Shown here piece after piece: positions 7,073 to 47,797 of a DNA stretch of 64,000 nucleotides; within the stretch, counting starts at the first letter, position 1, and each line of letters opens with the position of its first letter. Below the pieces are notes generated by a model. That model was not told where the DNA came from. It ran no database searches and worked only from the letters and a program-made list of their open reading frames with translations. The stretch spans positions 1 to 64,000 of the forward strand of contig DATLXU010000079.1 of assembly GCA_035575515.1 (NCBI GenBank), read 5' to 3'. The DNA is from Blastocatellia bacterium. GTDB taxonomy: Bacteria > Acidobacteriota > Blastocatellia > UBA7656. The position numbers were made by a program, and so were the translations under genes.

Positions 7073-7182
7073 TAGGGGCAGGGCTTGTCCCTGCCCGAAT
7101 GGCCGACAGGCCATGACAGCGCAATTTGAAATCATTCATCGCGCTGGCGCGCGATTCTGGCAGGGACAAGCCCTGCCCCTAC
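7073..7182. repeat. Pair of REP-like palindromes, GGGGCAGGGCTTGTCCCTGCCC (7075-7096) and its copy (7159-7182), plus hairpin atggccgacaggccat (7099-7114)
   Basis: Perfect self-complementary 21-mers read directly. The same unit recurs at 18839, 19791 and 19914. Confidence 0.6.
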
Positions 7183-7268
7183 ATGGGAAATCCGCGTTGT
7201 GTTATAGTGACCGCCGTGACGACCCCGTCAGGTCGCGTTCAAATCATAAAGTGATAAAGGCAAAGCTA

Positions 7269-8957
7269 ATGTCCGACACACTGGTAGGAACAGTCAAGGG
7301 ACCGGGCGAGAAACCGCACGAGTTCATCTTCATAACGACAGACAACGAGCGCACGCGCATCGGCGAATTCATCTATTACGTCGCGCGTGCGGCCGTAGCC
7401 GAGCGGCAAATAATCGGGACCATCACCGAGCGCAGCCTGGTTCGCTCATTGCCCGACAGTTTTCTTGCAGACCCCGAAACGCCACCTGCGATGGTCGCCG
7501 CGATGATAGGACTTGAAGACGAGGGCGCAGAGCTTTTCGAGATAACCGTCGCCGTCATCGGCTACTTCGACGACGAGCTATCGGACTTCGTCAACCCGCG
7601 CATACCGCCAATGCCCGGCCAGCAGATTTACCTCGCGCCTTCTGAGCTGCTCGCGCGCGTGCTGTCGCCTCGACGAAAAGGCGAGCGCGGCGCAGCTCAC
7701 ATCGGCAGCCTCCTCACGCGCGAGGCGGGCGAAGTGCCCGTCGTGCTCTCGGTCAAAGACATTGTCTCGACTCACCTAGCTGTATTGGCTTCGACGGGCG
7801 CGGGCAAGAGCTACACCGCAGCCGTGCTGATCGAAGAGCTGATGAAATCAGAGAACCGCTCCGCCGTTTTGATTATTGACCCGCACGGCGAGTATGACAC
7901 CCTGCAAGACATCAAGCGCGCCGAGTTCAAAGGTTATTTCTCATCGGACGGCTACGAGCCTGAGGTGAGAATACTCAGGCCCGAAAAAGTCAAAGTCCGA
8001 TTCGACAGCCTTGAGTTTGCAGACATCTGTTACCTGCTGCCTGAGATGACCGACAAGATGCGTCACTTTTTAGGGAACGCCTTTCGCACGATGCGCGAGC
8101 GCGCGGGCAAGTACGGCCACTATACGATTCGGGATTTGATGGACGCTGTGGCAGAACAGCGATTCGGCGACGATGAAGGAAACCGCGCGGGCAACATCAG
8201 CACGATTGACGGACTGGAGTGGCGATTGAATGATCGCTTTCGCGGCTACACCAGGCATCAGATCTTTTCAGACAGCGAGCATAACGCGCTCGTCGAGCTT
8301 TTCATGCCCGGCCAGTGCACGGTGCTTCAGCTCGCGGACATTGACGAGAAAGAGCAGCAGGTGATTGTTGGGACTCTGCTGCGCCGCGCGATACTCGCGC
8401 GCATGGCGACGCATAAATCGGAAGTGACTGACCCGACGAGCGAGCGTTACTTGCCTTATCCTGTTTTCGTGCTGCTCGAAGAAGCGCACCGATTCGCGCC
8501 CGCAGGTCAAACCGTAGTTTCGACGAACGTGCTGAAGCAGATACTTTCCGAGGGGCGCAAGTTCGGCGTCGGCGTCGGACTTATCACGCAGCGACCGGGC
8601 AAGCTCGATGCGGATGTTTTGTCGCAGTGCATGACTCAATTCATCATGCGAATTGTGAATCCGATTGATCAGGACACGATCGCAAAGACCGTCGAAGGCG
8701 CGGGCCGACGAATGCTCGATGAATTGCCCGCGCTCACGAAGGGTCAGTTGATCGTTTCGGGCGTTGCTATAAATACGCCTGTGATGTGCCAGGTGCGAAA
8801 GCGATTGACGCGGCACGGCGGCGAGACGATTGACGCGCCTTCGGAGTGGGCGAAGTATCATTCAAATTCAAGCCGCGAGCGCCGCGACCGTGAGCGCGCC
8901 GTGCTTGTGAAGCCTCAGCCGAAATCGGGCGGGCGCATCGGCGGCATCGAGATTTGA
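7269..8957 (+). CDS. HerA-like FtsK/HerA-superfamily ATPase (HAS-barrel + DUF87-type P-loop)
   Basis: Walker A LASTGAGKSYTAAV. Other motifs: VLIIDPHGEY, VFVLLEEAHRFAP, GLITQRPGKLD. N-terminal barrel GTVKGPGEKPHEFIFI. ATG at 7269; the track ORF from 7113 runs through the REP and is rejected. Confidence 0.7.
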   Translation: MSDTLVGTVKGPGEKPHEFIFITTDNERTRIGEFIYYVARAAVAERQIIGTITERSLVRSLPDSFLADPETPPAMVAAMIGLEDEGAELFEITVAVIGYFDDELSDFVNPRIPPMPGQQIYLAPSELLARVLSPRRKGERGAAHIGSLLTREAGEVPVVLSVKDIVSTHLAVLASTGAGKSYTAAVLIEELMKSENRSAVLIIDPHGEYDTLQDIKRAEFKGYFSSDGYEPEVRILRPEKVKVRFDSLEFADICYLLPEMTDKMRHFLGNAFRTMRERAGKYGHYTIRDLMDAVAEQRFGDDEGNRAGNISTIDGLEWRLNDRFRGYTRHQIFSDSEHNALVELFMPGQCTVLQLADIDEKEQQVIVGTLLRRAILARMATHKSEVTDPTSERYLPYPVFVLLEEAHRFAPAGQTVVSTNVLKQILSEGRKFGVGVGLITQRPGKLDADVLSQCMTQFIMRIVNPIDQDTIAKTVEGAGRRMLDELPALTKGQLIVSGVAINTPVMCQVRKRLTRHGGETIDAPSEWAKYHSNSSRERRDRERAVLVKPQPKSGGRIGGIEI

Positions 8958-10907: not shown

Positions 10908-11225
10908 CTACAGCTTTTCCAGATCATCCTTCGCGCACAGCACGCGAGGTCGTTTCGGGTCTGACAAATCCATCTGGTCCCAGCGGACTTTGTAGCGGCG
11001 GGTTTTGCCTATGCCGAACCATCGGAACAAACGAAAGCCACCTGCGAGCGCCGACAATCGTTCAAGCAATGCGTAAGGGCCGAGCAGGTATTCTTCGATG
11101 ACGTTTTCATCACCCTCTTGTTTTGTATGAAACTCTTCTATTCGCCCGACCGTCTCGCCGTTTAAATCCGTCACGCGCCGCGACAGCAGCAACTCGATGT
11201 GGATTTCACTATCAGCCATGCTCAC
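10908..11225 (-). CDS. small PRC-barrel-like protein
   Basis: Weak: DLNGETVGRIEEF pattern; translationally coupled to 11222..11581. Confidence 0.35.
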   Translation of the reverse strand: MSMADSEIHIELLLSRRVTDLNGETVGRIEEFHTKQEGDENVIEEYLLGPYALLERLSALAGGFRLFRWFGIGKTRRYKVRWDQMDLSDPKRPRVLCAKDDLEKL

Positions 11226-11581
11226 GCTCCCGGTATGCGCCCGATTATTTTTTCATTCACCCACTTCTCCCACGAGATGAGCGGCGTCTTCTCCCATTCC
11301 AGATCAACTTCGACATCAATGCCAACCTCACGCACCTTTGACCAAGGGATTCTGTAAGGCTCGCCCTCGCTTACCTTGAGCCTTCGCTCAAGAGCTGCCG
11401 CCCACTTTGCAAGCCTGGGGTTCAAACGGCGCGCGAGCGCGACTGTTCCGACTTCGATGTAAGCCACTCGCGGCGGCTTGCCTTCGCGCAGCGCGACTAT
11501 GATGCCGTCAACTTTCCCTATGCTATTTTGATTGCGATCAACCAGTTGCTTGTCTAACACGTCGCGGATCAGATCTCCCAT
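11222..11581 (-). CDS. PRC-barrel domain protein
   Basis: VDRNQNSIGKVDGIIV.. pattern typical of PRC barrels. Confidence 0.45.
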   Translation of the reverse strand: MGDLIRDVLDKQLVDRNQNSIGKVDGIIVALREGKPPRVAYIEVGTVALARRLNPRLAKWAAALERRLKVSEGEPYRIPWSKVREVGIDVEVDLEWEKTPLISWEKWVNEKIIGRIPGA

Positions 11582-11582
11582 G

Positions 11583-12797
11583 TCAGCCTCCGAAGATTTG
11601 AAGCGGGATAGTCACAACCGCCAGCACGCACGCAAGGATGATAATCAACGTCACAACAACGTTGCTGATGATTCCGTTGCGGTGCTCGCCGACGTAGCGT
11701 TTATCATTCATCAAAATCAAAAAAGGCATGATCGAAAGCGGCAAAGTCGCCGCCGTCAGCGCCATCGAAAAAATGGTCAGCTTCAAGGGATCAATCCCCA
11801 CCAACACCAGAAGCGCGCCCGCGAAAATAGTCACGGTGTAAACGAGGCTGAATCGCGCCGCGTCTCTAGGCTTCTGGTCTTCGCCCCAGTTCCACCCGAA
11901 CGCCTGCGCTATGAAGTAGGCAATCTCTAAACTTATCTCCTGCGCCGCGCCGAAGCACGCGATGCCGAGCGATGCGGCAAATAAAATGAACCCCCAGTAG
12001 CCAAACGCTGGTGTCAGTATCAGCGCGACTTGATCGTAATGATCAACCTGAATGCCGCGCGGCATGAACACAATGGCTGAAACCACGAGCACTGCCATCG
12101 AGATGGCGCTGCCGAAGCTCATCCCCAAACCAGCGACGGCGCGGTTTGTGCCTAAGTAGCTTTCATCCCACTTATCTTCGATAGCGCCCGATGAGTAGAA
12201 GAACATCAGGTAAGGCGTGATTGACGCGCCGAGAATGCTCACGGCGATGAACCAGTAGCGGGCTTCGTCTTTGGCGGGCAGACTCGGCACCAATCCTGTG
12301 GCGACATCATTCCAAGGCGGGTAAAGCCAGTAAGCGCCGACGACGAAACATAGAGTGACGAGTCCGAGCAGCGAGGCTCCTTTTTCAATGACGCTGAACG
12401 TGCCTTTCCAGATGAGCAACCAGATGAGAAAGGCGACGGGCAAGGCCCACCACTGAAAAGCGATGCCTGTGACAAGCTCAAGCGCGATGCACACGCCGCC
12501 GATTTCAGCCGCGAGCACGAGCAGAGTCACGAGTATGAATCCGATCATCGGGGCTACGAAGAAGTTAAAGCCGAACCGCTCGCGTATCGCGGCGGGTATC
12601 GTGTGATGGCTGACGGCGGCGAAGCGGCCCGACATCTCAACGAGAAAGATTATGCACAGCCCGCCGAGCGCGATTGCCCATATCAACTGGAATCCGAACA
12701 GCGCGCCCGCCTGCGCCGCAGTTGTCAGTGAGCCGATTTCAAGGAAACCGCCGATGCTCGTTACGATGCCGAGCGCGACTTCAAATATTTTCTTCAT
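11583..12797 (-). CDS. Nramp-related divalent-cation transporter (divergent metal site)
   Basis: About 11 TM segments. TAAQAGALFGFQLIWAIAL aligns to Nramp TM1 (..DLQAGAQYGYRLLWVVLL). GASITPYLMFFYSSG aligns to the TM6 A-x-x-M-P-H region. The DPGN and MPH metal-binding residues are replaced (EIGS, TPY). Confidence 0.55.
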   Translation of the reverse strand: MKKIFEVALGIVTSIGGFLEIGSLTTAAQAGALFGFQLIWAIALGGLCIIFLVEMSGRFAAVSHHTIPAAIRERFGFNFFVAPMIGFILVTLLVLAAEIGGVCIALELVTGIAFQWWALPVAFLIWLLIWKGTFSVIEKGASLLGLVTLCFVVGAYWLYPPWNDVATGLVPSLPAKDEARYWFIAVSILGASITPYLMFFYSSGAIEDKWDESYLGTNRAVAGLGMSFGSAISMAVLVVSAIVFMPRGIQVDHYDQVALILTPAFGYWGFILFAASLGIACFGAAQEISLEIAYFIAQAFGWNWGEDQKPRDAARFSLVYTVTIFAGALLVLVGIDPLKLTIFSMALTAATLPLSIMPFLILMNDKRYVGEHRNGIISNVVVTLIIILACVLAVVTIPLQIFGG

Positions 12798-13219
12798 CGA
12801 GTCGTGTCGCCGTAGCCTTTCAGTATTTGAGCGAGAGCATCTTCCACAGAAGACAACTGTCCCATCTGTTGCTGCACGCGAGCGCGGTCGCTCGCGTCAA
12901 TTGCGGCTTTCGTCTCTTCGACTTGACGGCGGAGACTTTCGGTCTGCGCCGCGATATGCGCGCGCGGCTCGTCAGGTATTGATGATTGAATCGCGCTCAT
13001 CTCTTTCTCTAGCGCCTGCGCCGTTGCAGCCATCGTGTCGCTCGCATAAGGCTTCGGCGCAGCGCCCGCCACATAAGCTTCGGCTGTCATTCGTGCCGCC
13101 GCTGCCCACGATTGAATAGTCTTTATCTCTTTCGTTGCTTTATCGCGCGGAGAGCCACATCCCTCCAAAAAAAGCAGCAACAGGATTGTGAGTGTTAACG
13201 CTCGCTTAATCGCCATCAA
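12794..13219 (-). CDS. small lipoprotein (LEGC lipobox)
   Basis: MMAIKRALTLTILLLLFLEGCGSP signal/lipobox. Overlaps the Nramp start by 4 nt. Confidence 0.45.
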   Translation of the reverse strand: MMAIKRALTLTILLLLFLEGCGSPRDKATKEIKTIQSWAAAARMTAEAYVAGAAPKPYASDTMAATAQALEKEMSAIQSSIPDEPRAHIAAQTESLRRQVEETKAAIDASDRARVQQQMGQLSSVEDALAQILKGYGDTTR

Positions 13220-13247: not shown

Positions 13248-14068
13248 TTACTGCCTGCTCCCTTCTGCCTTCACAAGCACTCTCCGCTCGGACTCTCTGA
13301 GCCAACCGACGAAGAACATCAGCCCCGCAAAAATGTAAACGAGCCCGGCGGGAATCCACATTATCAGCCCGCCGAGTTGCTGGTCTTCAATCGGTGTGAG
13401 CCCCCACGATTGAGTTGTGTTGGAGTAGGCCGGATACACAAGGGCTGAAGCAAAAGTAATCAATGCTCCAAGCACGCCGCTGTGGACCGATGTCGTGAAC
13501 ATATAGAGCACCGCTGCGCCATAGTTCATCAATCCTCGACGGCTGTGAATGACCGCCCACCAGAACAGCAGCGCCGAGCCGAGAAAGCTCAGGTGTTGCA
13601 GTGTGTGAACCCATTCGTTATCAATCGTCGCCTGAAACAACGCGGGCGCATGCCACACCCAAAGCGCCGCCGCGTGAATCGCCCACGCCGCGAGCGGGTT
13701 CGTTATCGCGCGCCACGCGGATTGAAAGGCTCTTGCTTTGCTCAATTCTCCCGCTTTGCGTCGCCATCCGATGGGGAGCGCCCACAGGAAAGCAATCAAC
13801 GGCCTTGCCAAAATCAGCAGCGGCGCGGCGACAAGCATCAGCACTTCGTGTTGAGTCATGTGCGCCGAAAACAAAACGCGGCCCATCGGATGAAGCGGTG
13901 ACACAAGCGCAATGAACAGCGCGAACCAGCCGCCCGCATAACAGGCAGCTTCCCACTTGCGAATGCCGCGACCCGCCGAAGACTCTCGCCACAATCGCCT
14001 TACGCCTCGAATGTACAACCACGCCGAAAGCGCGAGGCACACAATGACAACAGGCTCAAAGCCCCACA
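13248..14068 (-). CDS. ctaG: caa3-type cytochrome c oxidase assembly factor CtaG-like (Caa3_CtaG family) membrane protein
   Basis: Polytopic membrane protein with conserved His residues (HPMGRVLFSAHMTQHE, WHAPALF, HTLQHL). ATG at 14068 (MWGFEP). The upstream 87 codons of the track ORF lie in repeat DNA and are rejected. Confidence 0.55.
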
Positions 14069-14100
14069 TCGTTAAAAGGTCGCGCGGCGTGTGAGGCTTA

Positions 14101-14330
14101 CCTTCATGGGCAAGGCAAAAGGAAAAGGGAAAAAGGCAAAGAGCAAATGTCAAAAGGGACTTTGATATGGCGACTCGGAAAGTGAACGACGCCGCGAAAC
14201 CGATTGTATGACTTGTGTTTTCGAGCTTGGATGAAAGCGATGCCGCCGTGTCTTCACATCTCCATCTCTCCGCGTCGTACTTTATTTTTGCCTTTTGCCT
14301 TTTGCCTTTTACCTTCATTTTTGACACGGT
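14101..14330. repeat. Long interrupted inverted repeat built from GGCAAAA/GGAAAAG tandem units (14105-14160) and their complement TTTTGCC x3 (14285-14320)
   Basis: Read directly. It lies between the small TM gene and the ctaG-like start, i.e. intercistronic. Confidence 0.45.
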
Positions 14331-14695
14331 CCCAAAATGAAATTAGGAATCGCCTGAGCAAGAATGGCGAGAAAAAACAATGTGCTGACCAGTAACGCGA
14401 GGACGGCCATGAATCGGCTGCGCCCGATTGTATTGCTCGATTCATCAGGCCACTGTTTTCCCGCGCGCAGCCACTCGCGCCATGCGACAAGTAAGCCGCT
14501 TGCCGCTAACAACAACGCGCCGAGCGGAATGATATACAGCGCAAGAGCGTGACCCGTCGCGCAGGCCACCGGCACGAGGATGTAACTCACTTGCAGATTC
14601 AGCAGCCACGCGACTGGTCCTGCGAAAAACGCGAACCACAGAGCCAGCAATCCGCCGCCGCTTGATAAATCTTTTGCCGTCTTTTCCATCAACAA
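14315..14695 (-). CDS. small 3-4 TM membrane protein in the oxidase operon (subunit IV-like?)
   Basis: Hydrophobic profile; position between ctaE and ctaG-like. Confidence 0.4.
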   Translation of the reverse strand: MLMEKTAKDLSSGGGLLALWFAFFAGPVAWLLNLQVSYILVPVACATGHALALYIIPLGALLLAASGLLVAWREWLRAGKQWPDESSNTIGRSRFMAVLALLVSTLFFLAILAQAIPNFILGPCQK

Positions 14696-14696
14696 C

Positions 14697-15305
14697 TCAC
14701 CAAGCGCGAGGGCTGAGGTAAATTATCGGATAGAGCACCGCCCACGCGACGACGACGAAGTACCAGTAGATCGCCGTCACGCTCAAATCCAACCTGTGCT
14801 TTTCGTCGAGCCGATGCGTGAAGACCCACGCGGTTAAAACGAACGTTTCGCCCGTCGCCGCAATCAGATGACCTAAATGCAAACTGAGCGCCGCCCACGC
14901 AATCGAGCCGTAAGCGTTGGCGTCCCACTTCACTTTCAGCGCGTTGAATTCAAAAAAGCGCAAAGTCACCGCCGCGATTAGAAACATGCTTGATACGACA
15001 AGCCCGATCTGGATACTTCGCTGGCTGCCTCCGCGCACCGCCAGCAAGTGCACAGCGATTTCCGGCGCGAGGCTCACTATCATCACAATGAGATTAATCG
15101 TCGGCAAAAGCAGGTCGGGGTCCGGGATTGGTCGAGGCGGCCACGCCGAGAAACTTTTGCTGATGTAAAAATAGCTGCCTATAACGATGGCGAACATCGT
15201 CGCTTCGGTCACAATCATTAGCAGGTTTCCCCACCACAGAGGCGCACGGCTGCTGTAACCGTGAAGCGGCAACTGCGATACGTCTAAGCCTGGTCGCTCT
15301 TTCAT
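14697..15305 (-). CDS. ctaE: cytochrome c oxidase subunit III
   Basis: WWGNLLMIVTEATMFAIVIGSYFY..HL motifs of the COX3 family. 2-nt gap to the small TM gene. Confidence 0.8.
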   Translation of the reverse strand: MKERPGLDVSQLPLHGYSSRAPLWWGNLLMIVTEATMFAIVIGSYFYISKSFSAWPPRPIPDPDLLLPTINLIVMIVSLAPEIAVHLLAVRGGSQRSIQIGLVVSSMFLIAAVTLRFFEFNALKVKWDANAYGSIAWAALSLHLGHLIAATGETFVLTAWVFTHRLDEKHRLDLSVTAIYWYFVVVAWAVLYPIIYLSPRAW

Positions 15306-17251
15306 AACTCGTCCTCAAGCGGCTCGCGCGTTTGACCTGGCAGGTTCGGCTCAGGCCGGTTGCCCGACCAGAACCACCCAATGAGCGCAATGGCGCAAAG
15401 CGTCCCGCCTATGGGAATGCCCCACGGTGTGAAGATGACGACGATGAACGTGACGCCCACGCCAAGCGCAAGCATCAAAGGCCAGATAGATGGGCCGGGC
15501 ATCTCGTAGCGTCGGTCTGGTTCCGCGTCGAGCGGATTCGTGAGCAGCACCTCGCGGCACTCGCTGCGAAGCCCTGTGACGACTGGCGTGTCTGCGGTTC
15601 GCGTCCACATCGGCGTGCGACTGTTCACCGTCGGCGGAAAGACGAAGTTGTAAGGCGGCGGAGGCGACTGCGTGTCCCATTCGAGCGTGTCCGACTCCCA
15701 CGGATTGTTGCCCGCCGCAAGCCCGTTGCGGCAGCTCCATAAAACGTTGGCGATAAATATCACAACGCTTGTGGCGATGATGACCGCGCCGATGGAAGCG
15801 AGCGCGTTCAGATTGGCCCAGCCCGTGCCTTCCTGATATGTGTAAACGCGGCGCGGCATTCCCTGAAGTCCTAGCTGGTGCATCGGAAAGAACGTCAGGT
15901 TGAAGCCTATAAAGAGCAGCCAGAAATTCCACTTGCCCACGCGCTCGCTCAGCATTCGACCTGTCCATTTCGGGAACCAGTAATAAAAAGCGCCAAAGAG
16001 AGGAAAGACCGCGCCGCCTATCAGCACGTAATGAAAATGCGCGACGACGAAGAATGTGTCGTGCACCTGAAGGTCGAGCGGCACAGCCGCAAGCATCACG
16101 CCCGTCAGCCCGCCCAAGACGAACAGGGCTATGAAGCCGAGGATGAAAAGCATCGGCGTGGCAAATCGTACTTTGCCGCTCCACAGGCTTGCGAGCCAGC
16201 AGAAGATTTGAATGCCGCTCGGAATCGCAATCATCATGCTCGCTGCGGTGAAAAAACTCTGGCCGAGCTGCGGCACATCGGTGGCAAACATGTGGTGCAC
16301 CCACAGGCCGAAGCCTATGAAGCCAGTCGCGACGAGCGAGAGCACCAATGCAAGATAGCCGAAGGTCGGACGGCGTGTGAACGAAGGCAGCATCGTCGAG
16401 ACAAGGCCAGTCGCGGGGATGAAGATTATGTAAACTTCCGGGTGGCCGAAGAACCAGAACAGGTGCTGCCACAGCATCGGGTCGCCGCCTTCAGCCGGAT
16501 TGAAAAAGTGCGTGCTGATGAGCCGGTCGGTTGCCAGCATCGAACTCGACAACATGACGGCAGGCATAGCGAACAAGACCATGAACGATGTAATAATCAT
16601 CGCCCACACGTATATAGGTATGCGGTTGAGCGACATCCCCGGCACTCGCTGCTTGAATGCGGTGACGATGATTTCGATGCCGCCGACTATTGCGGCAATC
16701 TCGGTGAAGGTTATCATCTGCGCCCAGAAGTCAACGCGCTTGCCGGGCGAGTACTGCGGCCCGGAAAGCGGCACGTAGCTGAACCATCCCGTGTCAACGC
16801 CGATGTTCAGAATGAAAGCGACGTATATCATCACGCCGCCGATAAGATAGACGTAATAGCCGAAGGCGTTCAGTCGCGGCAGCGCCACATTGCGCGTGCC
16901 TATCATCAGCGGCACGAAGTAAAGCCCTAAAGCTTCCATAATCGGCACGGCGAACAAAAACATCATCGTCGTGCCGTGCATCGAGAAGAATTGATCGTAG
17001 AGGTCGGGCCCAAGTATTCGATTTTCGGGCCGCGACAACTGCAGCCGTATAACAGCAGCCTCGATGCCGCCGAGCAGGAAAAAAATGAAAGCCGTGATTA
17101 TGTAACGCCGCGCGATGGATTTGTGATTCGTCGTCGTGAGCCAGCCCCAGAGTCCCGGCGGAGATGCCCACGTTCTTTCGAGAATCGCGCGCTCGCGCTC
17201 CTCGCGGGCGCGCACGTCGTCTGTTGTAACTGTCGCGGACTCGACGTTCAT
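15302..17251 (-). CDS. ctaD: cytochrome c oxidase subunit I with ~100-aa C-terminal 2-TM extension
   Basis: HKSIARRYI, WFFGHPEVYI, HFHYVLIGGAVF, GMPRR heme-copper oxidase signatures. 4-nt overlaps on both sides. Confidence 0.9.
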   Translation of the reverse strand: MNVESATVTTDDVRAREERERAILERTWASPPGLWGWLTTTNHKSIARRYIITAFIFFLLGGIEAAVIRLQLSRPENRILGPDLYDQFFSMHGTTMMFLFAVPIMEALGLYFVPLMIGTRNVALPRLNAFGYYVYLIGGVMIYVAFILNIGVDTGWFSYVPLSGPQYSPGKRVDFWAQMITFTEIAAIVGGIEIIVTAFKQRVPGMSLNRIPIYVWAMIITSFMVLFAMPAVMLSSSMLATDRLISTHFFNPAEGGDPMLWQHLFWFFGHPEVYIIFIPATGLVSTMLPSFTRRPTFGYLALVLSLVATGFIGFGLWVHHMFATDVPQLGQSFFTAASMMIAIPSGIQIFCWLASLWSGKVRFATPMLFILGFIALFVLGGLTGVMLAAVPLDLQVHDTFFVVAHFHYVLIGGAVFPLFGAFYYWFPKWTGRMLSERVGKWNFWLLFIGFNLTFFPMHQLGLQGMPRRVYTYQEGTGWANLNALASIGAVIIATSVVIFIANVLWSCRNGLAAGNNPWESDTLEWDTQSPPPPYNFVFPPTVNSRTPMWTRTADTPVVTGLRSECREVLLTNPLDAEPDRRYEMPGPSIWPLMLALGVGVTFIVVIFTPWGIPIGGTLCAIALIGWFWSGNRPEPNLPGQTREPLEDEL

Positions 17252-18282
17252 TTGAGGCTCTCCAAGTAAGCGAGCAACGCTTGCAGTTCTTCCGGGCTGA
17301 GCATGTTCTGCGGCATGCGATTGCCGGGCTTCACCGATTGCGAATCAACGACCCAACGCGCGAGACTATCGTGAGCGAAAGGTATTGTCCCGGCCGCGAT
17401 TGTCTGACGGCTCGCGACGTGAGTGAGGTTTGGCCCGACGTGAGCGCCTGCGGGCGTGCCTTGAATCGTGTGGCAGAGCACGCATGACTTCGTGAGAAAT
17501 ACCTGCTGGCCGCGCGCCTGCAATTGGTCTGCAGGTTGAACGGAAGGCTTGCGCTGGTTTTCGAGCCACGCCTGAAACTGATCGGGCGGCTCAGCGATGA
17601 TAAAGAAAGCCATGTGAGCATGTTGATGGCCGCAGAACTCTGCGCACTGGCCGCGAAACGTGCCGGGCGCGTCTGCCTGAATCGTCGTGATGATTTCGTG
17701 ATCGGGTATGAGGTCTTTCTTGCCGTGAAGACTGGGAACCCAGAAGCTGTGAATCACGTCGTGCGAAGTCAGCTTGAGCATCACGGTCTGGCCTGTCGGA
17801 ATATGAATCTCGTTTGCAGTCGTCACGCGTTGGCTCGCAACCGGGTCTTCGTACTCAACCTCCCACCACCACTGATGGCCTGTGATTTTGATCGTCAAAA
17901 AATCTCCCGAAGGCGGCGGCGAAATTGCTCTTCCAGTCAAGACGCTTGCGACGAGAAGGCCGAATAAAGTTACTACTGTCACGGCGACAGCAATCGAAAC
18001 CGCTCGCGCCATTCGTCGCTCGGCATTCTCATCTGTAGCTGCGTTGTTTCTGCGGCGCGAGCGATAGGCTCCATAAAGCATGAACGCTACGACAAGCACG
18101 AAGACAATCACGCTGACCGTAAACAGCAGCCACCAGAGATTGCCGATGCGTTCGGATTGCGGGCCTGCGGGGTTGAGCGCCGAGTGATTCCCCCCGCAGC
18201 TTGCAAGCGACAGGCAAGCCGCCGCAATCAGAATGCGCAGCGCGGCTACATTCAAACGCGGCTTGATTGGGTGGCTCATCAT
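17248..18282 (-). CDS. ctaC: cytochrome c oxidase subunit II, caa3-type (CuA domain + C-terminal c-type haem CVLCH)
   Basis: CuA ligands HSFWVPSLHGKKD...CAEFCGHQHAHM. C-terminal CVLCHTIQG haem-binding motif. Confidence 0.85.
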   Translation of the reverse strand: MMSHPIKPRLNVAALRILIAAACLSLASCGGNHSALNPAGPQSERIGNLWWLLFTVSVIVFVLVVAFMLYGAYRSRRRNNAATDENAERRMARAVSIAVAVTVVTLFGLLVASVLTGRAISPPPSGDFLTIKITGHQWWWEVEYEDPVASQRVTTANEIHIPTGQTVMLKLTSHDVIHSFWVPSLHGKKDLIPDHEIITTIQADAPGTFRGQCAEFCGHQHAHMAFFIIAEPPDQFQAWLENQRKPSVQPADQLQARGQQVFLTKSCVLCHTIQGTPAGAHVGPNLTHVASRQTIAAGTIPFAHDSLARWVVDSQSVKPGNRMPQNMLSPEELQALLAYLESLK

Positions 18283-18824
18283 TTATGCTCGGCTTTCTTT
18301 TCTGTCAGCGGCTGCTGAGGCATTTCCTGCTCCGAAGGCTTCATGTTCATGTGATCGCTGCGCGAAGGCGAAGCGTCTTTCGGAGTCTGGCCCGCGAGCG
18401 AGCGGACATAAGCGACCAGCTTCCAGATTTGATCGCTTGAGAGCTTATCGCCGAAAGCGGGCATTCCGTTTGGGCGGCCTTCGGCAATCGTGTCGTAGAG
18501 GTTCTGCGGGCTTGCGCCGTAAATCCACTTCTCGTCCATCAATGCAGGCCCGATTGCCCCACCGCCATGGGCGTGACAGCCGACGCAGTTGAACCATTCG
18601 AAGAGCGTCTTGCCTTCAGACATCGCGTAGGCGTTTCCTTCATACGGATTGACGACCTGCGGCTGCGCGACATGCGGGCCGGGCTGTAGCTCTGTCTGTC
18701 GCACTGGAGTGTTCGGAGGAGATGAGGGCGGCGTCGTTTTGAACTGCCGCTTCTCTCTCTCACACGAGACAAAAGCCAGCGCAGTAATGATTGATATTAA
18801 CAAGATGCTTTTTACTAATCGCAT
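18279..18824 (-). CDS. mono-haem class I cytochrome c (probable electron donor)
   Basis: Signal peptide, CVGCHAHGG (CxxCH), distal Met region GMPAF. Confidence 0.75.
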   Translation of the reverse strand: MRLVKSILLISIITALAFVSCEREKRQFKTTPPSSPPNTPVRQTELQPGPHVAQPQVVNPYEGNAYAMSEGKTLFEWFNCVGCHAHGGGAIGPALMDEKWIYGASPQNLYDTIAEGRPNGMPAFGDKLSSDQIWKLVAYVRSLAGQTPKDASPSRSDHMNMKPSEQEMPQQPLTEKKAEHK

Positions 18825-18836
18825 TCAATGCCTGTG

Positions 18837-18877
18837 TAGGGGCAGGGCTTGTCCCTGTCCGGATTGCCGAAGGCAAT
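18837..18877. repeat. REP-like element: taGGGGCAGGGCTTGTCCCTGtCC + hairpin ggATTGCCgaagGGCAATg
   Basis: Same palindrome family as at 7075; read directly. Confidence 0.55.
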
Positions 18878-18955
18878 GATAAAGATTCGCCATCGGACAA
18901 TTTAATCAATGCTCAAAGTCATCGCGCTTTCGCGCGATTCGGGTCGAGACCTGCC

Positions 18956-19765
18956 CTACGGTCTTGGCACGCCGTACTCGTCCAAAATTTTTTCGATGTC
19001 GGCGCGCTTTCGCTCGATGATGTTTTCAAGCTCATCCCTAAAGGCACTATCGCCGCGACGCACGCCCATTGAGATGTCGTAGAAAAATGGCAACGACGGC
19101 TTATCCACTTGCGGCGAGACCGGGACGATTTCAAGCGGCACCGTTTGCCGCTTTGCAAAAAAACCGGCGAGCGGTCCCCACACGATTGCAACATCAATAT
19201 CGCCCGCAGCCACCGCGTTGATGATTTGCGCCGACGCGTTCGGCTGCGAGTAGTCGCCATAGATCATGTAGCCTCGGACGTTTTCGGCTATGTGACGCTC
19301 CGCGAGCGCGTAAGCTGGCGGCGTGTAGGCGTTGTCATCGCTGATCATCTGGATTCCTATTCGCAGATGGCGAAGCGCGGGATCATCGAATGAATGAATT
19401 CTGAGGTGGCTGTCTTTTCGATAAACGAAGACGTAGCTTGAGCGGTAATAAGGCGCGGTCGTGAGCGCAAGCTCAGAGCTTGCGGGCACACCGATTACGC
19501 AATCGCACTGGCCCGTCTTCAGTTCGTTTCGTATGAAGCCGCGCCGCCGCGCCCACCAGATGTAGCTGACCGAAGCGTTCATCTCTCGCGCTACGAGTTC
19601 GGCGATTTTGTTCTCGAACCCTTCGAGACGCTCGTTTGAAAAAGGCAGGTTGTTCGGGTCGGCGCACACGCGAAGCACTCGCGTTGGTTTTGATTCACCT
19701 GCTTTGTTGGATTCGTCGGCTTTGCTTACTTCGCTTCGTTTCGCGCACGAAGCAAGCAGCAGCAT
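18956..19765 (-). CDS. xoxJ: quinoprotein-dehydrogenase-associated periplasmic binding protein (MoxJ/XoxJ family)
   Basis: LRVCADPNNLPFSN...GFENKIAELVAREM...CDCVIGV...PYYRSSYVFVYRKD matches the MxaJ/XoxJ family. ATG at 19765 (MLLLASC); the track ORF to 20110 reads through two REP palindromes. Confidence 0.6.
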   Translation of the reverse strand: MLLLASCAKRSEVSKADESNKAGESKPTRVLRVCADPNNLPFSNERLEGFENKIAELVAREMNASVSYIWWARRRGFIRNELKTGQCDCVIGVPASSELALTTAPYYRSSYVFVYRKDSHLRIHSFDDPALRHLRIGIQMISDDNAYTPPAYALAERHIAENVRGYMIYGDYSQPNASAQIINAVAAGDIDVAIVWGPLAGFFAKRQTVPLEIVPVSPQVDKPSLPFFYDISMGVRRGDSAFRDELENIIERKRADIEKILDEYGVPRP

Positions 19766-19790
19766 CAGGCATAATGCGAGCGCGGTTAGT

Positions 19791-19848
19791 GGGGGCAGGG
19801 CTTGTCCCTGCCCGGATTGGCCTTCGGCCAGTGAAAAGAATTCACCCG
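19791..19848. repeat. REP-like element: GGGGGCAGGGCTTGTCCCTGCCC + hairpin ggATTGGCCttcGGCCAgt + gtgaa..ttcac
   Basis: Read directly; same family. Confidence 0.55.
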
Positions 19849-19911
19849 CGACCAGTTTGATTAATGCGCGATTCTTTTCATCGCGCGTTGCGTGGAACCC
19901 GATTACGGGTT

Positions 19912-19938
19912 GCGGGCAGGGATCGTCCCTGCCCCTAC
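19912..19938. repeat. REP-like variant GCGGGCAGGGATCGTCCCTGCCCCTAC
   Basis: Read directly; the centre differs (ATCG for CTTG). Confidence 0.5.
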
Positions 19939-19991
19939 TGCGTACAAAATCGAAAACTGCTCTGCCATCCTGCTTCATAACCACCTTCGAC

Positions 19992-21842
19992 TCATGGGAG
20001 CGAGAAGACATAGAGCATCCCGCCTTTGGTCGTGTGCTGCGGCAGGTCGCCCATCGCGCCGACGAATCCAGCGGCTCCGCTCGCGTCGCGCGGGTCGAGG
20101 TCAGCCGCAACTATCGCGCCTGCCCAGCCGCCCACGCCCGACAGCACCGCGACGTACTGCTTGCCGTCAGGCCCGCGATATGTGACAGGCTGCCCGACAA
20201 TTCCTGAGCCGACTTTGAACTTCCACAACTCTTCGCCCGTGCGCGCGTTGATGGCTTTGAACCATCCGTCCATCGTGCCGTAAAAAGCGACATCGCCCGC
20301 CGTTACCGAGACTCCGCTCCACAAGGGAAAGTTTTCCGGAATGCTCCAGACCTTTCGCTGATTGACAGGGTCCCACGCGATGAACTCGCCGCGATTGCCG
20401 CCCGGCCCTGCGTACATCTTCACGTTCATCCCGACGTAAGGCGTGCCCGCAATGTAGTTGGCCTCTACGCCCTCGGCATCTTCACAGCAGTTATTGGCAG
20501 GGATGTAGAGCATCCCTGTGCGCGGCGAAAATGCCGACGGCTCCCAGTCTTTACCGCCTGCTGAAAAAGGACAAATCTCTCGAACCACTTTGCCAACGCC
20601 CGTCTCTTTCTCGTCGTTGTAGATTAACCTCCCCGTTTTCAAATCAACGCCCTTCGATGTCGTGATGTAAACGTAAGGCGTCGCCGAAAGCACTTCGCCG
20701 CTTGCGCGATCAATCACGTAAACGTAGCCGTTGCGCTCCGGCCTGACGATCACCTTCCGCGTCTGCCCGTTGATAGGCAAATCAACAAGAATGTTTTCGT
20801 TGACACCATCGTAATCGTGCAGGTCGTGCGGCGTGAACTGGTAAAACCAGACGGCCTCGCCCGTGTCAGGGTTGCGGGCGAAGATTCCGCAGGTCCATTT
20901 GTTATCGCCGGGCCGCTGTTCAGGATTCCACGGACCGGGGTTGGCTGTGCCGTAGTAGATCAGATTTAACTCAGGGTCATAAGAGATCCAGCCCCACACG
21001 CCGCCGCCTCCGATCTTCCAGGCATCGGGCGGCCAGCTCGCAACTCCTAAATCCGCGCCGCGATCCATCTCATAAAACGGCTTGAAGTTCGGGCCTATCA
21101 AACAATCAGCATCGGGACCTGTGCTGTAGGCCCTCCATGCAATCGCGCCCGTGTTTGCATCGAGCGCCGTCAGCCATCCACGAACGCCGAATTCGCCGCC
21201 GCTGTTGCCTACGAGCACTTTGCCTTTGACGACTATGGGAGCCATCGTGATTGACTCGCCGATATTTACGTCGCCGACTTTAGTCTTCCAGATTTCTTGT
21301 CCAGTCTCGGCGTCAACCGCGACCGTCTGCGCGTCGAGCGTGTTGTAAATGATCTTGCCTTCCCAGTAGGCGCAGCCTCGATTCACAACGTCGCAGCAGG
21401 CGACGCCTTGCGCGGCGGGCGAAGGCTGCGGGTCGTACTTCCACTTCATCGGCGCGCCTTCTTTCGTGAGGTCGAGCGCATAGAGATAATTCGGAAACGG
21501 GGTGACGATGTACATCGTGTTGTTGACGACGAGCGGCGCGGCTTCGTGGCCGTTCGTCAGTCCCGTAGAGAAAGTCCATGCGAGTTTGAGGTTAGCGACG
21601 TTTGCGGTGTTGATCTCATCGAGACCGCTGAAGCGGGTGTTGGCGTAGTCTTTTGCGGCCATCACCCACTGGCCGTCTTCCGAGCCGGGCGCGTAAGGGA
21701 TTGGCACGGGCGGGAGATTATTCTGACCGCGCTGCGCCGATTGTTTCTGCGAGCAGGCAATCGGCAGAAGAAATAAACAGAGCAGGCTTGCAAGCGCGAA
21801 CCAGTTTGCGATTGATGGCGAGTTAATTGATTGCCGCCTCAT
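19992..21842 (-). CDS. xoxF: PQQ-dependent methanol/ethanol-family dehydrogenase, XoxF-like (candidate lanthanide-dependent)
   Basis: Signal peptide, vicinal Cys pair (AAQGVACCDVV), 8-bladed propeller W-motifs, DNKWTCGIFARNPDTGEAVWFYQFTPHDLHDYDG (D-Y-D rather than D-x-A), C-terminal GGMLYVFSLP. Confidence 0.8.
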   Translation of the reverse strand: MRRQSINSPSIANWFALASLLCLFLLPIACSQKQSAQRGQNNLPPVPIPYAPGSEDGQWVMAAKDYANTRFSGLDEINTANVANLKLAWTFSTGLTNGHEAAPLVVNNTMYIVTPFPNYLYALDLTKEGAPMKWKYDPQPSPAAQGVACCDVVNRGCAYWEGKIIYNTLDAQTVAVDAETGQEIWKTKVGDVNIGESITMAPIVVKGKVLVGNSGGEFGVRGWLTALDANTGAIAWRAYSTGPDADCLIGPNFKPFYEMDRGADLGVASWPPDAWKIGGGGVWGWISYDPELNLIYYGTANPGPWNPEQRPGDNKWTCGIFARNPDTGEAVWFYQFTPHDLHDYDGVNENILVDLPINGQTRKVIVRPERNGYVYVIDRASGEVLSATPYVYITTSKGVDLKTGRLIYNDEKETGVGKVVREICPFSAGGKDWEPSAFSPRTGMLYIPANNCCEDAEGVEANYIAGTPYVGMNVKMYAGPGGNRGEFIAWDPVNQRKVWSIPENFPLWSGVSVTAGDVAFYGTMDGWFKAINARTGEELWKFKVGSGIVGQPVTYRGPDGKQYVAVLSGVGGWAGAIVAADLDPRDASGAAGFVGAMGDLPQHTTKGGMLYVFSLP

Positions 21843-23391: not shown

Positions 23392-26300
23392 TTATGAACC
23401 GGGACCTTTCCCTATTCGGCTGGCGAGGCTCGCTATGACGGCGACAAGCTCGGCTGGCTCTACAGGTTTCGGAATATGTATGTCGAAGCCAGCCGACAGC
23501 GCGCGCATGCGATCCACTATGCCAGCGTGAGCCGTAAGCGCGGCAGCCGGTATCCTGCCGTTTTGCGCGTGGCTCTCGTTCCTCACTTTGCGAATCAATG
23601 AATAGCCATCCTCGCCGGGCATCTCGATGTCGCTCACAAGCACGTCGGGCTTCAATCGCTTAATTGCATCAAGCGCCTCGCCAGCCGAAGCGACCGACGT
23701 GACTTCAACCTTGCACTGCTCCAGTATCGTCTTCAGCAACTGGCGCGCATCCGGCTCATCATCAACAACGAGCACGCGCAAGCCGACGAGCGCAGGCGGG
23801 CACTCGAAAGGTACGTCGGGCCACGCGGTCGGGTGTTTTCGCTCTGACGCGCTCGCCAGCAAACGCTTGGCGTCGCGCACGATCATCTGCGGAAGCTTTA
23901 TCGTAAAAGTAGCGCCGCGACCAACGCCTTCGCTTTCAGCCTGAATGTTGCCGCCGTGCAATTCCACGAGGTGGCGCACTATTGCAAGCCCAAGACCCAA
24001 GCCGCTTTGCGATCTCGTCAGCGTGCTGTCGGCTTGGCGAAAGCGATCAAAAACATGGGGCAGAAACTCCGGGCTGATGCCTATGCCCGTGTCGCTCACG
24101 GTGATTTCTATGTGCGAGTTGACGCGCTCAAGCAGCACCTGCACGCGCCCTTTTTTCGGAGTGAACTTGATGGCGTTCGACAACAGGTTCCAGACGATCT
24201 GCTGCAAGCGCGTAGGGTCGCCCGAAACGGGACCGGCTCGCGGATCGAGCGCCACGCTGAGTCGGATTGATTTCGCGTCTGCCGCCGGGCGCACAGAATC
24301 AATGGCCGCTTGGATGACGGGCGCGAGGTCGACTGGCTGAACGTCGAGGCGCATCTTTCCGCTGATGATGCGCGATACGTCGAGCAGGTCCTCTATCAAC
24401 TGCGCCTGCGATTTCGCGTTCCGCTCTATGGTTTCAAGCGCGCGCGTGTTGGTCTCTTCATCGAGCTTTCCGGTGCGCAGCATGCGCGTCCATCCGAGCA
24501 TTGCGTTTAGCGGCGTGCGAAGCTCGTGCGAAACCGTAGCCAGAAATTCATCCTTGAGCCGGTTGGCTTCTTCAGCCTGCTCGCGCGCCGCTTTTGTCTG
24601 CTCGTAGAGTTGCGTGTTGATGAGCGCGATCTGCGCGGCATCGGCCAATGCTTCAAGCAGCGCAACTTCGCGATCATCAGCTTTGCGCTGCTTTGTCCAA
24701 TAGACGCCGATTGCGCCGAGCGGATCGTGAGCGCGAATAGGCACCATGACAAGGCTTTTGACGAATGTGGATTGATATGCCTCGATGGGCAGCCGATGAT
24801 CGGAATAAATATCTTCGACGACGGCGGGTTTATGCTGAAGTATTGCCCAGCCTGAAATGCATGCGGCGATGGGGAAGCGACGGCCCTTCCACAGCGGCTC
24901 GCAGGCATCCTCTTCCGCGTAGAATATATAATCGCCTTCGCGCCTAACGAAGGTTGCGCCGTCGGCTTCGGCGATCTCGCGCGCCACGCGGCAGATGGTC
25001 GGAAGCAACTCCTGCAATTGAAGCGAAGCTGAAAACTGCCGGGTGGCTGAGGCGAGCAACTGGCTTTCGCGCCATCGCCTTTCAGCTTCGGCGCGCGCAG
25101 CCTGCTCGCGCGCAAGCAGTTGCTCGCGCTCCTGCTCCATCCGTATGCGCTCGGTAATATCGCGGGCGATTTTCGACGCCGCAATGATCCTCCCGCTTTT
25201 GTCCTTTATTGGAGAGATGGTCAAAGAGATGTTGACCCTGCGCCCGTCTTTCGTCATGCGCACAGTCTCGTAATGGTCAATGCGCTCGCCTCGCCTGAGC
25301 TTCGCAAGAATCTGCGGCTCCTCATAGTGCCTTTCGGGCGGGATAATGATGTAGATTGTTTTTCCGATGACTTCTTCAGCCGTGTAGCCGAATATGCGCT
25401 CGGCCCCTTTGTTCCAGCTCAGAATAACGCCTTCAAGCGTTTTGCTTACGATAGCGTCATCTGATGATTCGACAATCGCGGCCAGGTGCAGGCTCATCTG
25501 TTCAGCGCGCTTGCGCTCGATGAACTGCCCTATCTGGTTGCCCGTCGTCGCCATCATCTGGAGCAGGTCGTGATCGGGTTGACGAATCTCGTGGCTGAAG
25601 AACTCTATCACGCCGACGACCTCGCCTCCTCCAATTATGGGAAAGCCCAACGCCGCGCGCAGTCCCTCGCGCACGGCAATCGGCGCGCGAGGGAAGTTAT
25701 CGTCGCTGGTGACGTCAGGAATCCACACAGGCTCGGCGCGCGACCATACGCGGCCCGGAAGCCCGACGCCAGCAGAGAACGTCCGCTGGCGGCTCACTGC
25801 TTCAAACTCGCTGATGTTTGCGCCGGGCTTGTGCCAGACGTTGACGCAGCGCAGAACTCCGGCTGTTGCATCCAAGCTCCAGAGCAGGCCAACCTGCCAG
25901 TCGAGGCTACTGCAAACGGTTTCAAGAATGCGGGGCACCGCGTCAACGAGCGCCGCCGATTCATTCAGGACGCGGGCTATTTCGTACTGGACGCTCAGGC
26001 GTTGTTCGGCAAGCTTGCGCTGAGTAGCAAGATGCGCCGCTTCGAGCGCGATGGCCGACTGGTTGACGGCGACTCTCAGCAGGAGATTTTCGGTCTCGGT
26101 CGGAAAATCCTGCCTTCGTGAGGCGGCTGCTATCAGACCGTTTCCTTTATTAAGACCTAATGGAAAGCACGCGATGCGCACTTCTCCCTCGCCGACAGGA
26201 TTCGGCGCGGTGAAACGCGAAGCGGGGGCGTCGACAGTCAGCCAGCTTTCGAGCGCGCGACCAACCTCTTTCGCTTGAGCCTCCGGATAGTTTTGACCGG

Positions 26301-26526
26301 CGACTAGCAGAGATTCAAATGAAATGCCGCCAGTCGCTTCGTCGAGTCGCGCATAGACGAAATCCAGGCGCAGCATTCCGATGAGCGCTTCGTGAAGGGT
26401 CTTTACTATCTCGTGCGGCTCTTGTCCTGCCCACAGCGCGGGCAGCGCCATGAGGCTGACCAGATCGTTGACGCAACCACGAAGGCGCCGCACTTCTTCG
26501 GACTGGTCTTTTACTATTGGCTCCAC
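23392..26526 (-). CDS. hybrid sensor histidine kinase / response regulator (GAF-GAF-PAS-GAF-HisKA-HATPase-REC)
   Basis: H-box ATVSHELRTPLNAM; N, G1, G2 boxes (DTGIGI, GLGLGL). C-terminal receiver VLVVDDEPDARQLL...DIEMP...K. Confidence 0.8.
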   Translation of the reverse strand: MEPIVKDQSEEVRRLRGCVNDLVSLMALPALWAGQEPHEIVKTLHEALIGMLRLDFVYARLDEATGGISFESLLVAGQNYPEAQAKEVGRALESWLTVDAPASRFTAPNPVGEGEVRIACFPLGLNKGNGLIAAASRRQDFPTETENLLLRVAVNQSAIALEAAHLATQRKLAEQRLSVQYEIARVLNESAALVDAVPRILETVCSSLDWQVGLLWSLDATAGVLRCVNVWHKPGANISEFEAVSRQRTFSAGVGLPGRVWSRAEPVWIPDVTSDDNFPRAPIAVREGLRAALGFPIIGGGEVVGVIEFFSHEIRQPDHDLLQMMATTGNQIGQFIERKRAEQMSLHLAAIVESSDDAIVSKTLEGVILSWNKGAERIFGYTAEEVIGKTIYIIIPPERHYEEPQILAKLRRGERIDHYETVRMTKDGRRVNISLTISPIKDKSGRIIAASKIARDITERIRMEQEREQLLAREQAARAEAERRWRESQLLASATRQFSASLQLQELLPTICRVAREIAEADGATFVRREGDYIFYAEEDACEPLWKGRRFPIAACISGWAILQHKPAVVEDIYSDHRLPIEAYQSTFVKSLVMVPIRAHDPLGAIGVYWTKQRKADDREVALLEALADAAQIALINTQLYEQTKAAREQAEEANRLKDEFLATVSHELRTPLNAMLGWTRMLRTGKLDEETNTRALETIERNAKSQAQLIEDLLDVSRIISGKMRLDVQPVDLAPVIQAAIDSVRPAADAKSIRLSVALDPRAGPVSGDPTRLQQIVWNLLSNAIKFTPKKGRVQVLLERVNSHIEITVSDTGIGISPEFLPHVFDRFRQADSTLTRSQSGLGLGLAIVRHLVELHGGNIQAESEGVGRGATFTIKLPQMIVRDAKRLLASASERKHPTAWPDVPFECPPALVGLRVLVVDDEPDARQLLKTILEQCKVEVTSVASAGEALDAIKRLKPDVLVSDIEMPGEDGYSLIRKVRNESHAQNGRIPAAALTAHAGIVDRMRALSAGFDIHIPKPVEPAELVAVIASLASRIGKGPGS

Positions 26527-45955: not shown

Positions 45956-46216
45956 TTAGTCGCATATCGCGCTTCCAGGAAAGAGCAATGACATCAACTT
46001 TCTTTGCAGAATATAAATGCTGACTACCTCTGTAATCCCGTGCGCCTCTATGGCTCTTCGATAATGCAACTGCATACGCTAACGAAATTCAGCGAAAAAG
46101 TGTTAATATAGCTGCTCGCAAGGAGTATATAGCACGAGCCAAAAGTTGAATCCTCTAATCTGAACAATGGCTTTTCGCAAGTTGGTTGAGCGCAGCTAAA
46201 GATGAAGTGAGGTCTT

Positions 46217-47602: not shown

Positions 47603-47789
47603 ATTAAAAGTTCAGTGGGTCGAATTGCGGAGCGAGAAAGGGTATAAAAAGTTCGAGAAGATTCTGCGCGCCCTCTCAATTCCTTATAAATCATTCAAAG
47701 GCGACCTGAGCAAAGCTTTGAATGACATTTTGTCTGAGATTTCTGATGAAGAAGTCCAGGAGATGGCCACAGAAAATGCGGGGGTATAG
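47574..47789 (+). CDS. small hypothetical ORF downstream of and overlapping the MTase 3' end
   Basis: ORF only; no recognisable motif. Confidence 0.2.
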   Translation: MSSSRKQLDKLKVQWVELRSEKGYKKFEKILRALSIPYKSFKGDLSKALNDILSEISDEEVQEMATENAGV

Positions 47790-47797
47790 CAATCTTA

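Follow-up and report, generated by a model that had tools for sequence, protein, structure and literature searches.

A XoxF3-type alcohol dehydrogenase operon in a Blastocatellia bacterium that probably carries its own short respiratory chain

This study concerns a 64,000-nucleotide stretch of Blastocatellia bacterium DNA (contig DATLXU010000079.1, positions 1 to 64,000; hereafter the window) and a block of minus-strand genes at 13248-21842 that encodes a XoxF dehydrogenase, a XoxJ-like protein, a mono-haem cytochrome c, a caa3-type oxidase and CtaG. The organism is a soil acidobacterium, and the cytochrome of the block is 100% identical to a protein from a metagenome-assembled genome of Blastocatellia (Acidobacteriota). 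We read the block as an operon for a XoxF3-type lanthanide- and pyrroloquinoline quinone (PQQ)-dependent alcohol, probably methanol, dehydrogenase that carries its own short respiratory chain, and give this reading a probability of about 0.68. A preliminary description of the DNA had proposed a self-contained periplasmic module running from alcohol to O2; this proposal fits the genes present and their translational coupling, the nearly constant association of XoxF, cytochrome and oxidase in at least four phyla, and the published XoxF3 systems. The architecture itself is already in the literature, and the locus is a further, clean and intact Blastocatellia example of it.

An open reading frame (ORF) listing and family scans place all eight genes of the block where they had been described (Table 1), and most of the junctions are, as had been claimed, overlaps of stop and start. 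Coordinates and sequence both reveal 4-nt overlaps of the ATGA type at cytochrome/coxII, coxII/coxI, coxI/coxIII and orf126/ctaG; coxIII and orf126 are separated by a gap of 7 nt or less, and the sole long spacer of the block, 131 nt, lies between xoxJ and the cytochrome gene. The end point at ctaG did not hold, as the tightly packed same-strand array continues, mostly coupled, to position 10908 through a small ORF, an NRAMP-family transporter gene and two further small ORFs. The block would presumably be read as a single transcript. When the window was scanned for promoter and terminator consensus sequences, no minus-strand promoter was seen ahead of xoxF; promoter predictions did not exceed the shuffle expectation, and such a scan is uninformative for Acidobacteriota. 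Rfam and tRNA scans of the window returned no matches. The identical locus is present in four assemblies (GCA_037024535.1, GCA_037024515.1, GCA_037024575.1 and GCA_037024475.1).

Table 1. Genes of the array, in order of transcription, with the palindromic repeats that accompany them (aa, amino acids; TM, transmembrane segments; REP, repetitive extragenic palindrome; MITE, miniature inverted-repeat transposable element)
Feature	Position	Strand	Product	Family match and remarks
xoxF	19992-21842	minus	616 aa	TIGR03075, 664 bits (cutoff 480); lanthanide-type PQQ alcohol/methanol dehydrogenase, XoxF3-like
xoxJ-like periplasmic binding protein	18956-20011	minus	351 aa as called	TIGR03871 (MoxJ_2), 307 bits (cutoff 212)
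inverted REP-like pair (MITE-like)	19788-19940			inverted repeat I5, 27-nt arms 81% complementary; inside the 5' end of xoxJ
REP-like palindrome	18836-18866			within the 131-nt xoxJ-cytochrome spacer
mono-haem class I cytochrome c	18279-18824	minus	181 aa	PF13442/PF00034; one CVGCH at residue 80
coxII with C-terminal cytochrome c domain	17248-18282	minus	344 aa	TIGR02866, 176 bits (cutoff 147.7); PF00034 at 256-344
coxI	15302-17251	minus	649 aa	A1-type haem-copper subunit I; TIGR02891, 718.8 bits (cutoff 670.75)
coxIII	14697-15305	minus	202 aa	short 5-helix form; PF00510, 47.6 bits (cutoff 23.8)
orf126	14315-14695	minus	124-126 aa, 3 TM	subunit-IV (CtaF) position; no family match
ctaG	13248-14327	minus	356-359 aa	start ATG 14318 or GTG 14327; PF09678, 213 bits (cutoff 27.7)
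small lipoprotein-like ORF	12794-13219	minus	140-141 aa	N-terminus LLLLFLEGC; called as a gene in other assemblies
NRAMP-family metal transporter	11583-12797	minus		PF01566, 209 bits; translationally coupled to the preceding ORF
small cytoplasmic ORF	11222-11581	minus	119 aa	weak PRC-barrel match
small cytoplasmic ORF	10908-11225	minus	103-105 aa	

The dehydrogenase possesses the sequence hallmarks of a lanthanide-type enzyme and belongs to the eight-bladed PQQ dehydrogenases of the methanol/ethanol family. Its best solved relative is 4mae, the XoxF of Methylacidiphilum fumariolicum SolV (E=1.5e-206, 56% identity), with whose WDYDGVNE the motif H-D343-Y-D345-GVNE aligns, including the extra Asp that, two residues after the catalytic one, coordinates the lanthanide in such enzymes; the vicinal Cys pair 149-150 (ACCD, 148-151), the Glu of GGEFG and the Asn of ANPG are likewise retained. 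LPIAC, at the end of the signal peptide, may be a lipobox, and no ORF resembling the small subunit MxaI is present in the block. From these features the enzyme would be expected to employ a lanthanide and to oxidize an alcohol, probably methanol. We call it XoxF3-like, a label that rests on operon content and identities: the cox and ctaG genes described for xoxF3 operons (PMC10875860) are present, and the protein is 71% identical to its orthologue in Variovorax soli, whose locus has the same cluster, compared with only 56% to the XoxF2 of SolV. Another member of that genus, Variovorax paradoxus S110, is cited as a XoxF3 carrier (PMC7065363).

The oxidase is classed as a cytochrome c oxidase and not a quinol oxidase by the CuA ligands of CoxII (H177...C213-x-E-x-C217-x3-H221-x2-M224, E215 included). 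It is of the caa3 type, since CoxII continues at its C-terminus into a c-type haem domain with a haem site, CVLCH, at residue 267; CoxII also has a lipobox-like LASC. CoxI keeps the D-channel Glu in WFFGHPEVY (the GHPEVY motif) and is extended by two extra C-terminal helices, with additional hydrophobic segments at 586-624. CtaG matches its Pfam family strongly and falls below the Bacillus equivalog TIGR02737 (76 versus 279). For orf126, profile searches against Pfam, NCBIfam and the PDB returned nothing meaningful. Two cysteines of its product, C43 and C122, do not vary among 14 sequences and by prediction face the same side of the membrane, and the gene is kept between coxIII and ctaG in many loci across phyla. 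As it occupies the CtaF position of the Bacillus ctaCDEFG order, our best guess is that it encodes subunit IV or a protein with an assembly or copper-handling role. In PMC10875860 the protein at this position is a conserved hypothetical protein of XoxF3 systems; the 'vesicle-transport' similarity published for it was not reproduced here.

The arrangement is strongly conserved in other genomes. One scan, anchored on XoxF and limited to one genome per species, gathered 80 loci at 60-75% identity, the range also found among loci that share the cluster, and the proteins of the window were placed in them by tblastn. A second, independent scan of metagenome contigs was anchored on the cytochrome and likewise yielded 80 loci; all counts refer to loci with enough flanking sequence. 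The XoxF-anchored loci belong to Acidobacteriota (several classes), Gemmatimonadota, Alpha-, Beta- and Gammaproteobacteria and Binatia. The cytochrome lies no more than 2.5 kb downstream of xoxF in 62 of 65 loci, and coxI no more than 6 kb downstream in 49 of 56, the oxidase being immediately upstream in 4 and absent from the vicinity in 3. Among the metagenome loci, xoxF or xoxJ precedes the cytochrome without exception (72/72), and coxII is always the next gene downstream (62/62). With more than 150 independent loci from at least four phyla, the arrangement is far beyond chance. Pairwise divergence of XoxF correlates with that of CoxI (Mantel r=0.86, 0/2000 permutations), and the two proteins share most of their nearest neighbours; as these come mostly from the same taxon, recent horizontal transfer of the module is not claimed. 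Culturable carriers of the cluster include, for example, Variovorax soli, Ramlibacter alkalitolerans and Sphingomonas arvum. Tandem duplication of xoxF ahead of the cluster was observed in four loci (L034, L040, L045 and L063) from Longimicrobium, Thermoanaerobaculia and Acidobacteria gp7.

The cytochrome is encoded beside xoxF and xoxJ, the position expected of XoxG, and the claim that no separate canonical xoxG accompanies it agrees with the window, where no further CxxCH-bearing ORF of at least 70 aa was found apart from coxII with its CVLCH. Its Met121 lies within an invariant GRPNGMP motif. The N-terminus is that of a predicted lipoprotein (...AFVSC|EREKR), followed by a Pro/Ser-rich linker of about 40 residues, and the lipobox Cys is followed by x-R-E (CERE, CKRE, CQRE, CDRE and so on) in 133 of 149 homologues. 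A minority (for example L052, L064 and L070) have ordinary signal peptides, and these occur in the order xoxF-cytochrome-xoxJ. Lipobox-like signals on XoxF, XoxJ and CoxII, all present in this genome, recur in only 25-42% of homologues, so tethering of the whole chain is not conserved. Judged by sequence, the cytochrome is no XoxG of the cL type but a predicted lipoprotein whose haem domain is CcoP-like. Structural modelling could not separate a cL from an oxidase-type affiliation, as the PDB structures matched by Foldseek were all generic class I cytochromes (c6, cL, c552; E>=4e-3, root-mean-square deviation 5-6 A); the AlphaFold2 model used, built from a 40-sequence alignment, is haem-free, has a mean predicted local distance difference test (pLDDT) score of 69 and a disordered haem loop.

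Where the oxidase has moved upstream (L042, L046, L052, L060 and L073), the cytochrome stays in the order xoxF-cytochrome-xoxJ, and the same order is kept in L064, which has no oxidase within 10 kb. Remaining beside xoxF whether the oxidase is upstream or absent, the cytochrome would by its position be a partner of XoxF, and gene order supports its assignment as the XoxG equivalent that would accept electrons from XoxF. This agrees with the preliminary description in naming the cytochrome as the XoxF acceptor; the 'doubling' of functions invoked there is nothing unusual, as the protein is simply what the literature on XoxF3 systems calls XoxG, albeit one that is not cL-like.

In the scheme that we favour, alcohol would be oxidized by XoxF in the periplasm, and reduced PQQ would hand single electrons to the adjacent mono-haem cytochrome. 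The latter, presumably anchored in the cytoplasmic membrane through a lipid-modified Cys and carried on its flexible linker of about 40 residues, may act as a membrane-bound shuttle analogous in design to cytochrome cy. It would reduce the c domain of CoxII, from which electrons would pass via CuA and haem a to the haem a3/CuB centre and O2, with proton pumping predicted for an oxidase of the A1 type. CtaG, and probably also the two-cysteine, three-TM protein, would serve in oxidase assembly or, in the latter case, as a fourth subunit. XoxJ would assist XoxF, and the NRAMP set may supply metal.

A variant of this scheme has XoxF reducing the c domain of CoxII directly, leaving the lipoprotein cytochrome some other task, for instance as a branch point to or from other redox partners or as a structural subunit of the oxidase. 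CoxII already bears an exposed c-type haem, and the separate cytochrome falls below the curated cL cutoff, as this variant would allow. It leaves unexplained why the cytochrome remains between xoxF and xoxJ when the oxidase is upstream or, in L064, not nearby, and the characterized XoxF and MxaF enzymes are all known to use a dedicated small cytochrome (background in PMC10875860). We consider direct reduction of CoxII quite unlikely.

Several observations weigh against a dedicated alcohol-to-O2 chain. The cytochrome scores 50.9 bits against TIGR03872, the model for cL (XoxG/MxaG), whose cutoff is 147.8, and a profile built from 20 members of its family matches CcoP haem domains at 2e-32 compared with 5e-11 to 5e-8 for cL structures; with such a haem domain, the cytochrome could belong functionally to the oxidase instead of to XoxF. 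The co-divergence of XoxF and CoxI fits inheritance as a unit, and vertical descent would give the same correlation. Genes for PQQ synthesis or one-carbon (C1) assimilation are absent from the window, and export of XoxJ may be affected by an insertion described below. Turning to the literature, none of the XoxF3 systems with such an oxidase has been studied experimentally according to PMC10875860. The expression data cover methanotroph XoxF3 only: the gene is barely expressed in Methylocella silvestris (PMC9291206), where the locus may not be of the cox-linked type, and XoxF3 of Methylosinus trichosporium OB3b is induced by cerium.

On a rival reading, cytochrome and oxidase would be a general terminal branch fed by the bc1 complex or alternative complex III, with xoxF and xoxJ adjacent and without dedicated function. 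The resemblance of the haem domain to CcoP, an oxidase subunit, favours this reading. Oxidases of the caa3 type are ordinary housekeeping enzymes in many bacteria, and the view is limited to 64 kb of the genome, so the existence of another oxidase cannot be shown. Such a neighbourhood of convenience would hardly be expected to persist across Acidobacteriota, Gemmatimonadota, three classes of proteobacteria and Binatia, to survive the rearrangements that placed the oxidase upstream, to include xoxF or xoxJ in every metagenome locus with upstream flank and to be translationally coupled. This explanation we regard as very unlikely, and the dedicated chain is retained as the preferred interpretation.

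The xoxJ gene is irregular at its 5' end. Its frame opens at ATG 20011, overlapping the xoxF stop, and begins MSSRS... as do the homologues in L006 and L029; the conserved part covers about 18956-19790. Between the two, in the n-region of the signal peptide and ahead of the hydrophobic core and lipobox, lies a charged, stop-free insertion that adds about 68 aa in frame and is absent from all nine homologues compared (9/9). No alternative in-frame start giving a usable signal peptide was found, and gene callers report the 351-aa product in four independent assemblies. The binding-protein domain scores above its cutoff, whereas the export signal is interrupted by the insertion. The insertion is derived from an inverted pair of REP-like palindromes, whose RNA (19788-19940) folds at -99.5 kcal/mol (z=-5.8). 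A third copy occupies the xoxJ-cytochrome spacer, whose RNA folds at -53.4 kcal/mol (z=-3.5).

The underlying 21-nt palindrome, GGGCAGGG-N3-GTCCCTGYCC, has five sites in the window (7076, 7158, 18840, 19793 and 19914) against an expectation of 0. As a short imperfect palindrome at several, mostly intergenic sites of one genome it conforms to the REP/MITE pattern, with two copies inside an ORF. The statement that only REP elements interrupt the block is confirmed with one correction: the copies at 19793 and 19914 are not extragenic and lie in the xoxJ frame. No run of U follows the palindromes, which makes them unlikely to be intrinsic terminators, and their absence from 160 related loci of other organisms identifies them as insertions that are specific to this lineage and secondary to an operon compact in all other respects. 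The two remaining copies (7076-7096 and 7158-7178) flank the intergenic region between 5791-7062 and 7113-8957, an amidohydrolase gene and a gene for a HerA-like DUF87 ATPase. A 29-nt 'inverted repeat' (14112-14140 and 14287-14315) was rejected as a coding artefact, in which a Lys-rich and a Phe-rich stretch at the N-terminus of CtaG mirror one another, and is not a structural element.

That the module is decaying in this genome, XoxJ being barred from export and XoxF from maturation by the insertion, with its charged residues and lack of an alternative start, is again very improbable, given that the insertion is in frame and stop-free, that the eleven remaining genes are all intact and keep their motifs, that the locus is identical in four assemblies and that xoxJ does not adjoin xoxF in several lineages.

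A bolder version of the favoured scheme can also be framed. In it, XoxF3, the lipoprotein cytochrome with its C-x-R-E signature and the caa3 oxidase would associate physically as a membrane-tethered alcohol:O2 oxidoreductase supercomplex without a soluble carrier; the two-cysteine, three-TM protein would serve this module alone, as a subunit or as an adaptor for copper delivery, the NRAMP set would supply lanthanide or other metal, and the whole would have been inherited as one unit across phyla. We offer this tentatively and regard it as unlikely.

The block can be compared with several known systems. The soluble, cL-like XoxG of Methylorubrum extorquens and other XoxF5 methylotrophs passes electrons via a further cytochrome c to a separately encoded oxidase. 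The block shares with this canonical xoxFGJ arrangement a DYD-bearing PQQ dehydrogenase, a dedicated mono-haem cytochrome and XoxJ encoded together. It differs in that its cytochrome is below the cL cutoff, predicted to be lipoprotein-tethered and operonic with its own caa3 oxidase, and its XoxF is closer to the SolV structure 4mae (691 bits) than to the structure 6oc5 (586 bits). The XoxF2 of SolV, the closest solved enzyme, has all metal and PQQ motifs in common with the block protein. Its acceptor is a XoxG-XoxJ fusion protein, cytochrome cGJ, and to our knowledge the SolV operon has no oxidase; in the block, XoxJ and the cytochrome each have a gene of their own, and cox genes come next.

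The oxidase half of the block recalls ctaCDEFG of Bacillus subtilis (caa3-605), which encodes a subunit II-cytochrome c fusion, subunit I in a long and subunit III in a short form, a small three-TM protein and Caa3_CtaG. The order of the block genes is the same, whereas its three-TM protein has no detectable similarity to known subunit IV families, its CtaG scores below the Bacillus equivalog cutoff and a dehydrogenase module lies upstream. For the cytochrome, the nearest parallels are Rhodobacter cytochrome cy and the CcoP subunit of cbb3 oxidases, which also combine a class I haem domain with a membrane anchor and a flexible linker; the best PDB sequence matches of its haem domain are 3mk7_C (2e-32) and the cy-CcoP fusion 6xkx (1.2e-22). 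Unlike these, the block protein has a predicted lipid-modified Cys in place of a TM helix as its anchor, contains a single haem and is partnered by a PQQ dehydrogenase and an A-type oxidase.

Closest of all are the 'XoxF3 systems' of Acidobacteria, Gemmatimonadetes and Verrucomicrobia, for which Voutsinos et al. 2024 (BMC Biol 22:41, PMC10875860) list Cox, CtaG, XoxG, XoxJ, a small protein and NRAMP. The same authors credit Keltjens et al. 2014 with first noting cox and ctaG genes in xoxF3 operons. The present locus lacks the extra 'CytC' that follows ctaG in some of these clusters, and adds the lineage-specific REP/MITE insertions, one of them inside xoxJ. Among the loci compared here, a c-domain-like match 3' of ctaG was seen in, for example, L025, L029, L063 and L115.

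The association of NRAMP with XoxF3, reported in PMC10875860, extends to the downstream part of the array. An NRAMP gene adjoins the cluster in 13 related loci, and the trio of NRAMP and the two small ORFs of 119 and 105 aa is common to 7, the small ORFs always following NRAMP; the roles suggested for the set above are conjectural. No homologue of the small lipoprotein-like ORF at 12794-13219 was detected in the fetched loci.

Dehydrogenases of the XoxF3 type are among the most abundant PQQ dehydrogenases of soil and weathered-rock bacteria (PMC10875860; bioRxiv 10.64898/2026.07.10.737718). If the enzyme is indeed hard-wired to a proton-pumping oxidase, this would explain how energy could be drawn from trace methanol or other alcohols in soil phyla that are not methylotrophs, would tie lanthanide availability directly to respiration and would provide a compact module suitable for transplantation and study. 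The window adds nothing fundamentally new to the picture of XoxF3. Beyond the description in the available text of the published account, it contributes the predicted tethering of the cytochrome and its CcoP-like nature, the two-cysteine membrane protein, the evidence from swapped gene orders that the cytochrome follows xoxF, the REP/MITE insertion in xoxJ and the presence of the cluster in Beta- and Gammaproteobacteria and Binatia.

A close relative of the block XoxF (72% identity) has a different accessory set in two metagenome-assembled genomes of Phenylobacterium (L011, 11700-12660, and L022), where it is followed by a YncE-like beta-propeller and xoxJ, with no cytochrome or oxidase nearby. 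We had considered these loci as a contrast bearing a canonical xoxG and set them aside as uninformative, the gap between xoxF and xoxJ being filled by the beta-propeller and not by a cytochrome. In the window itself, the third gene upstream of xoxF (23392-26526, likewise on the minus strand) encodes a hybrid histidine kinase that combines two GAF domains with a PAS and a receiver domain, and genes for a methyltransferase and a YetF-family membrane protein lie between it and xoxF; a YetF homologue also occurs 3' of ctaG in L105. Further away, a patch of low GC content at 46001-48000 (0.475 versus about 0.56) contains a gene for an N6/N4 DNA methylase (46817-47602) and may represent foreign DNA or the remnant of a restriction-modification system.

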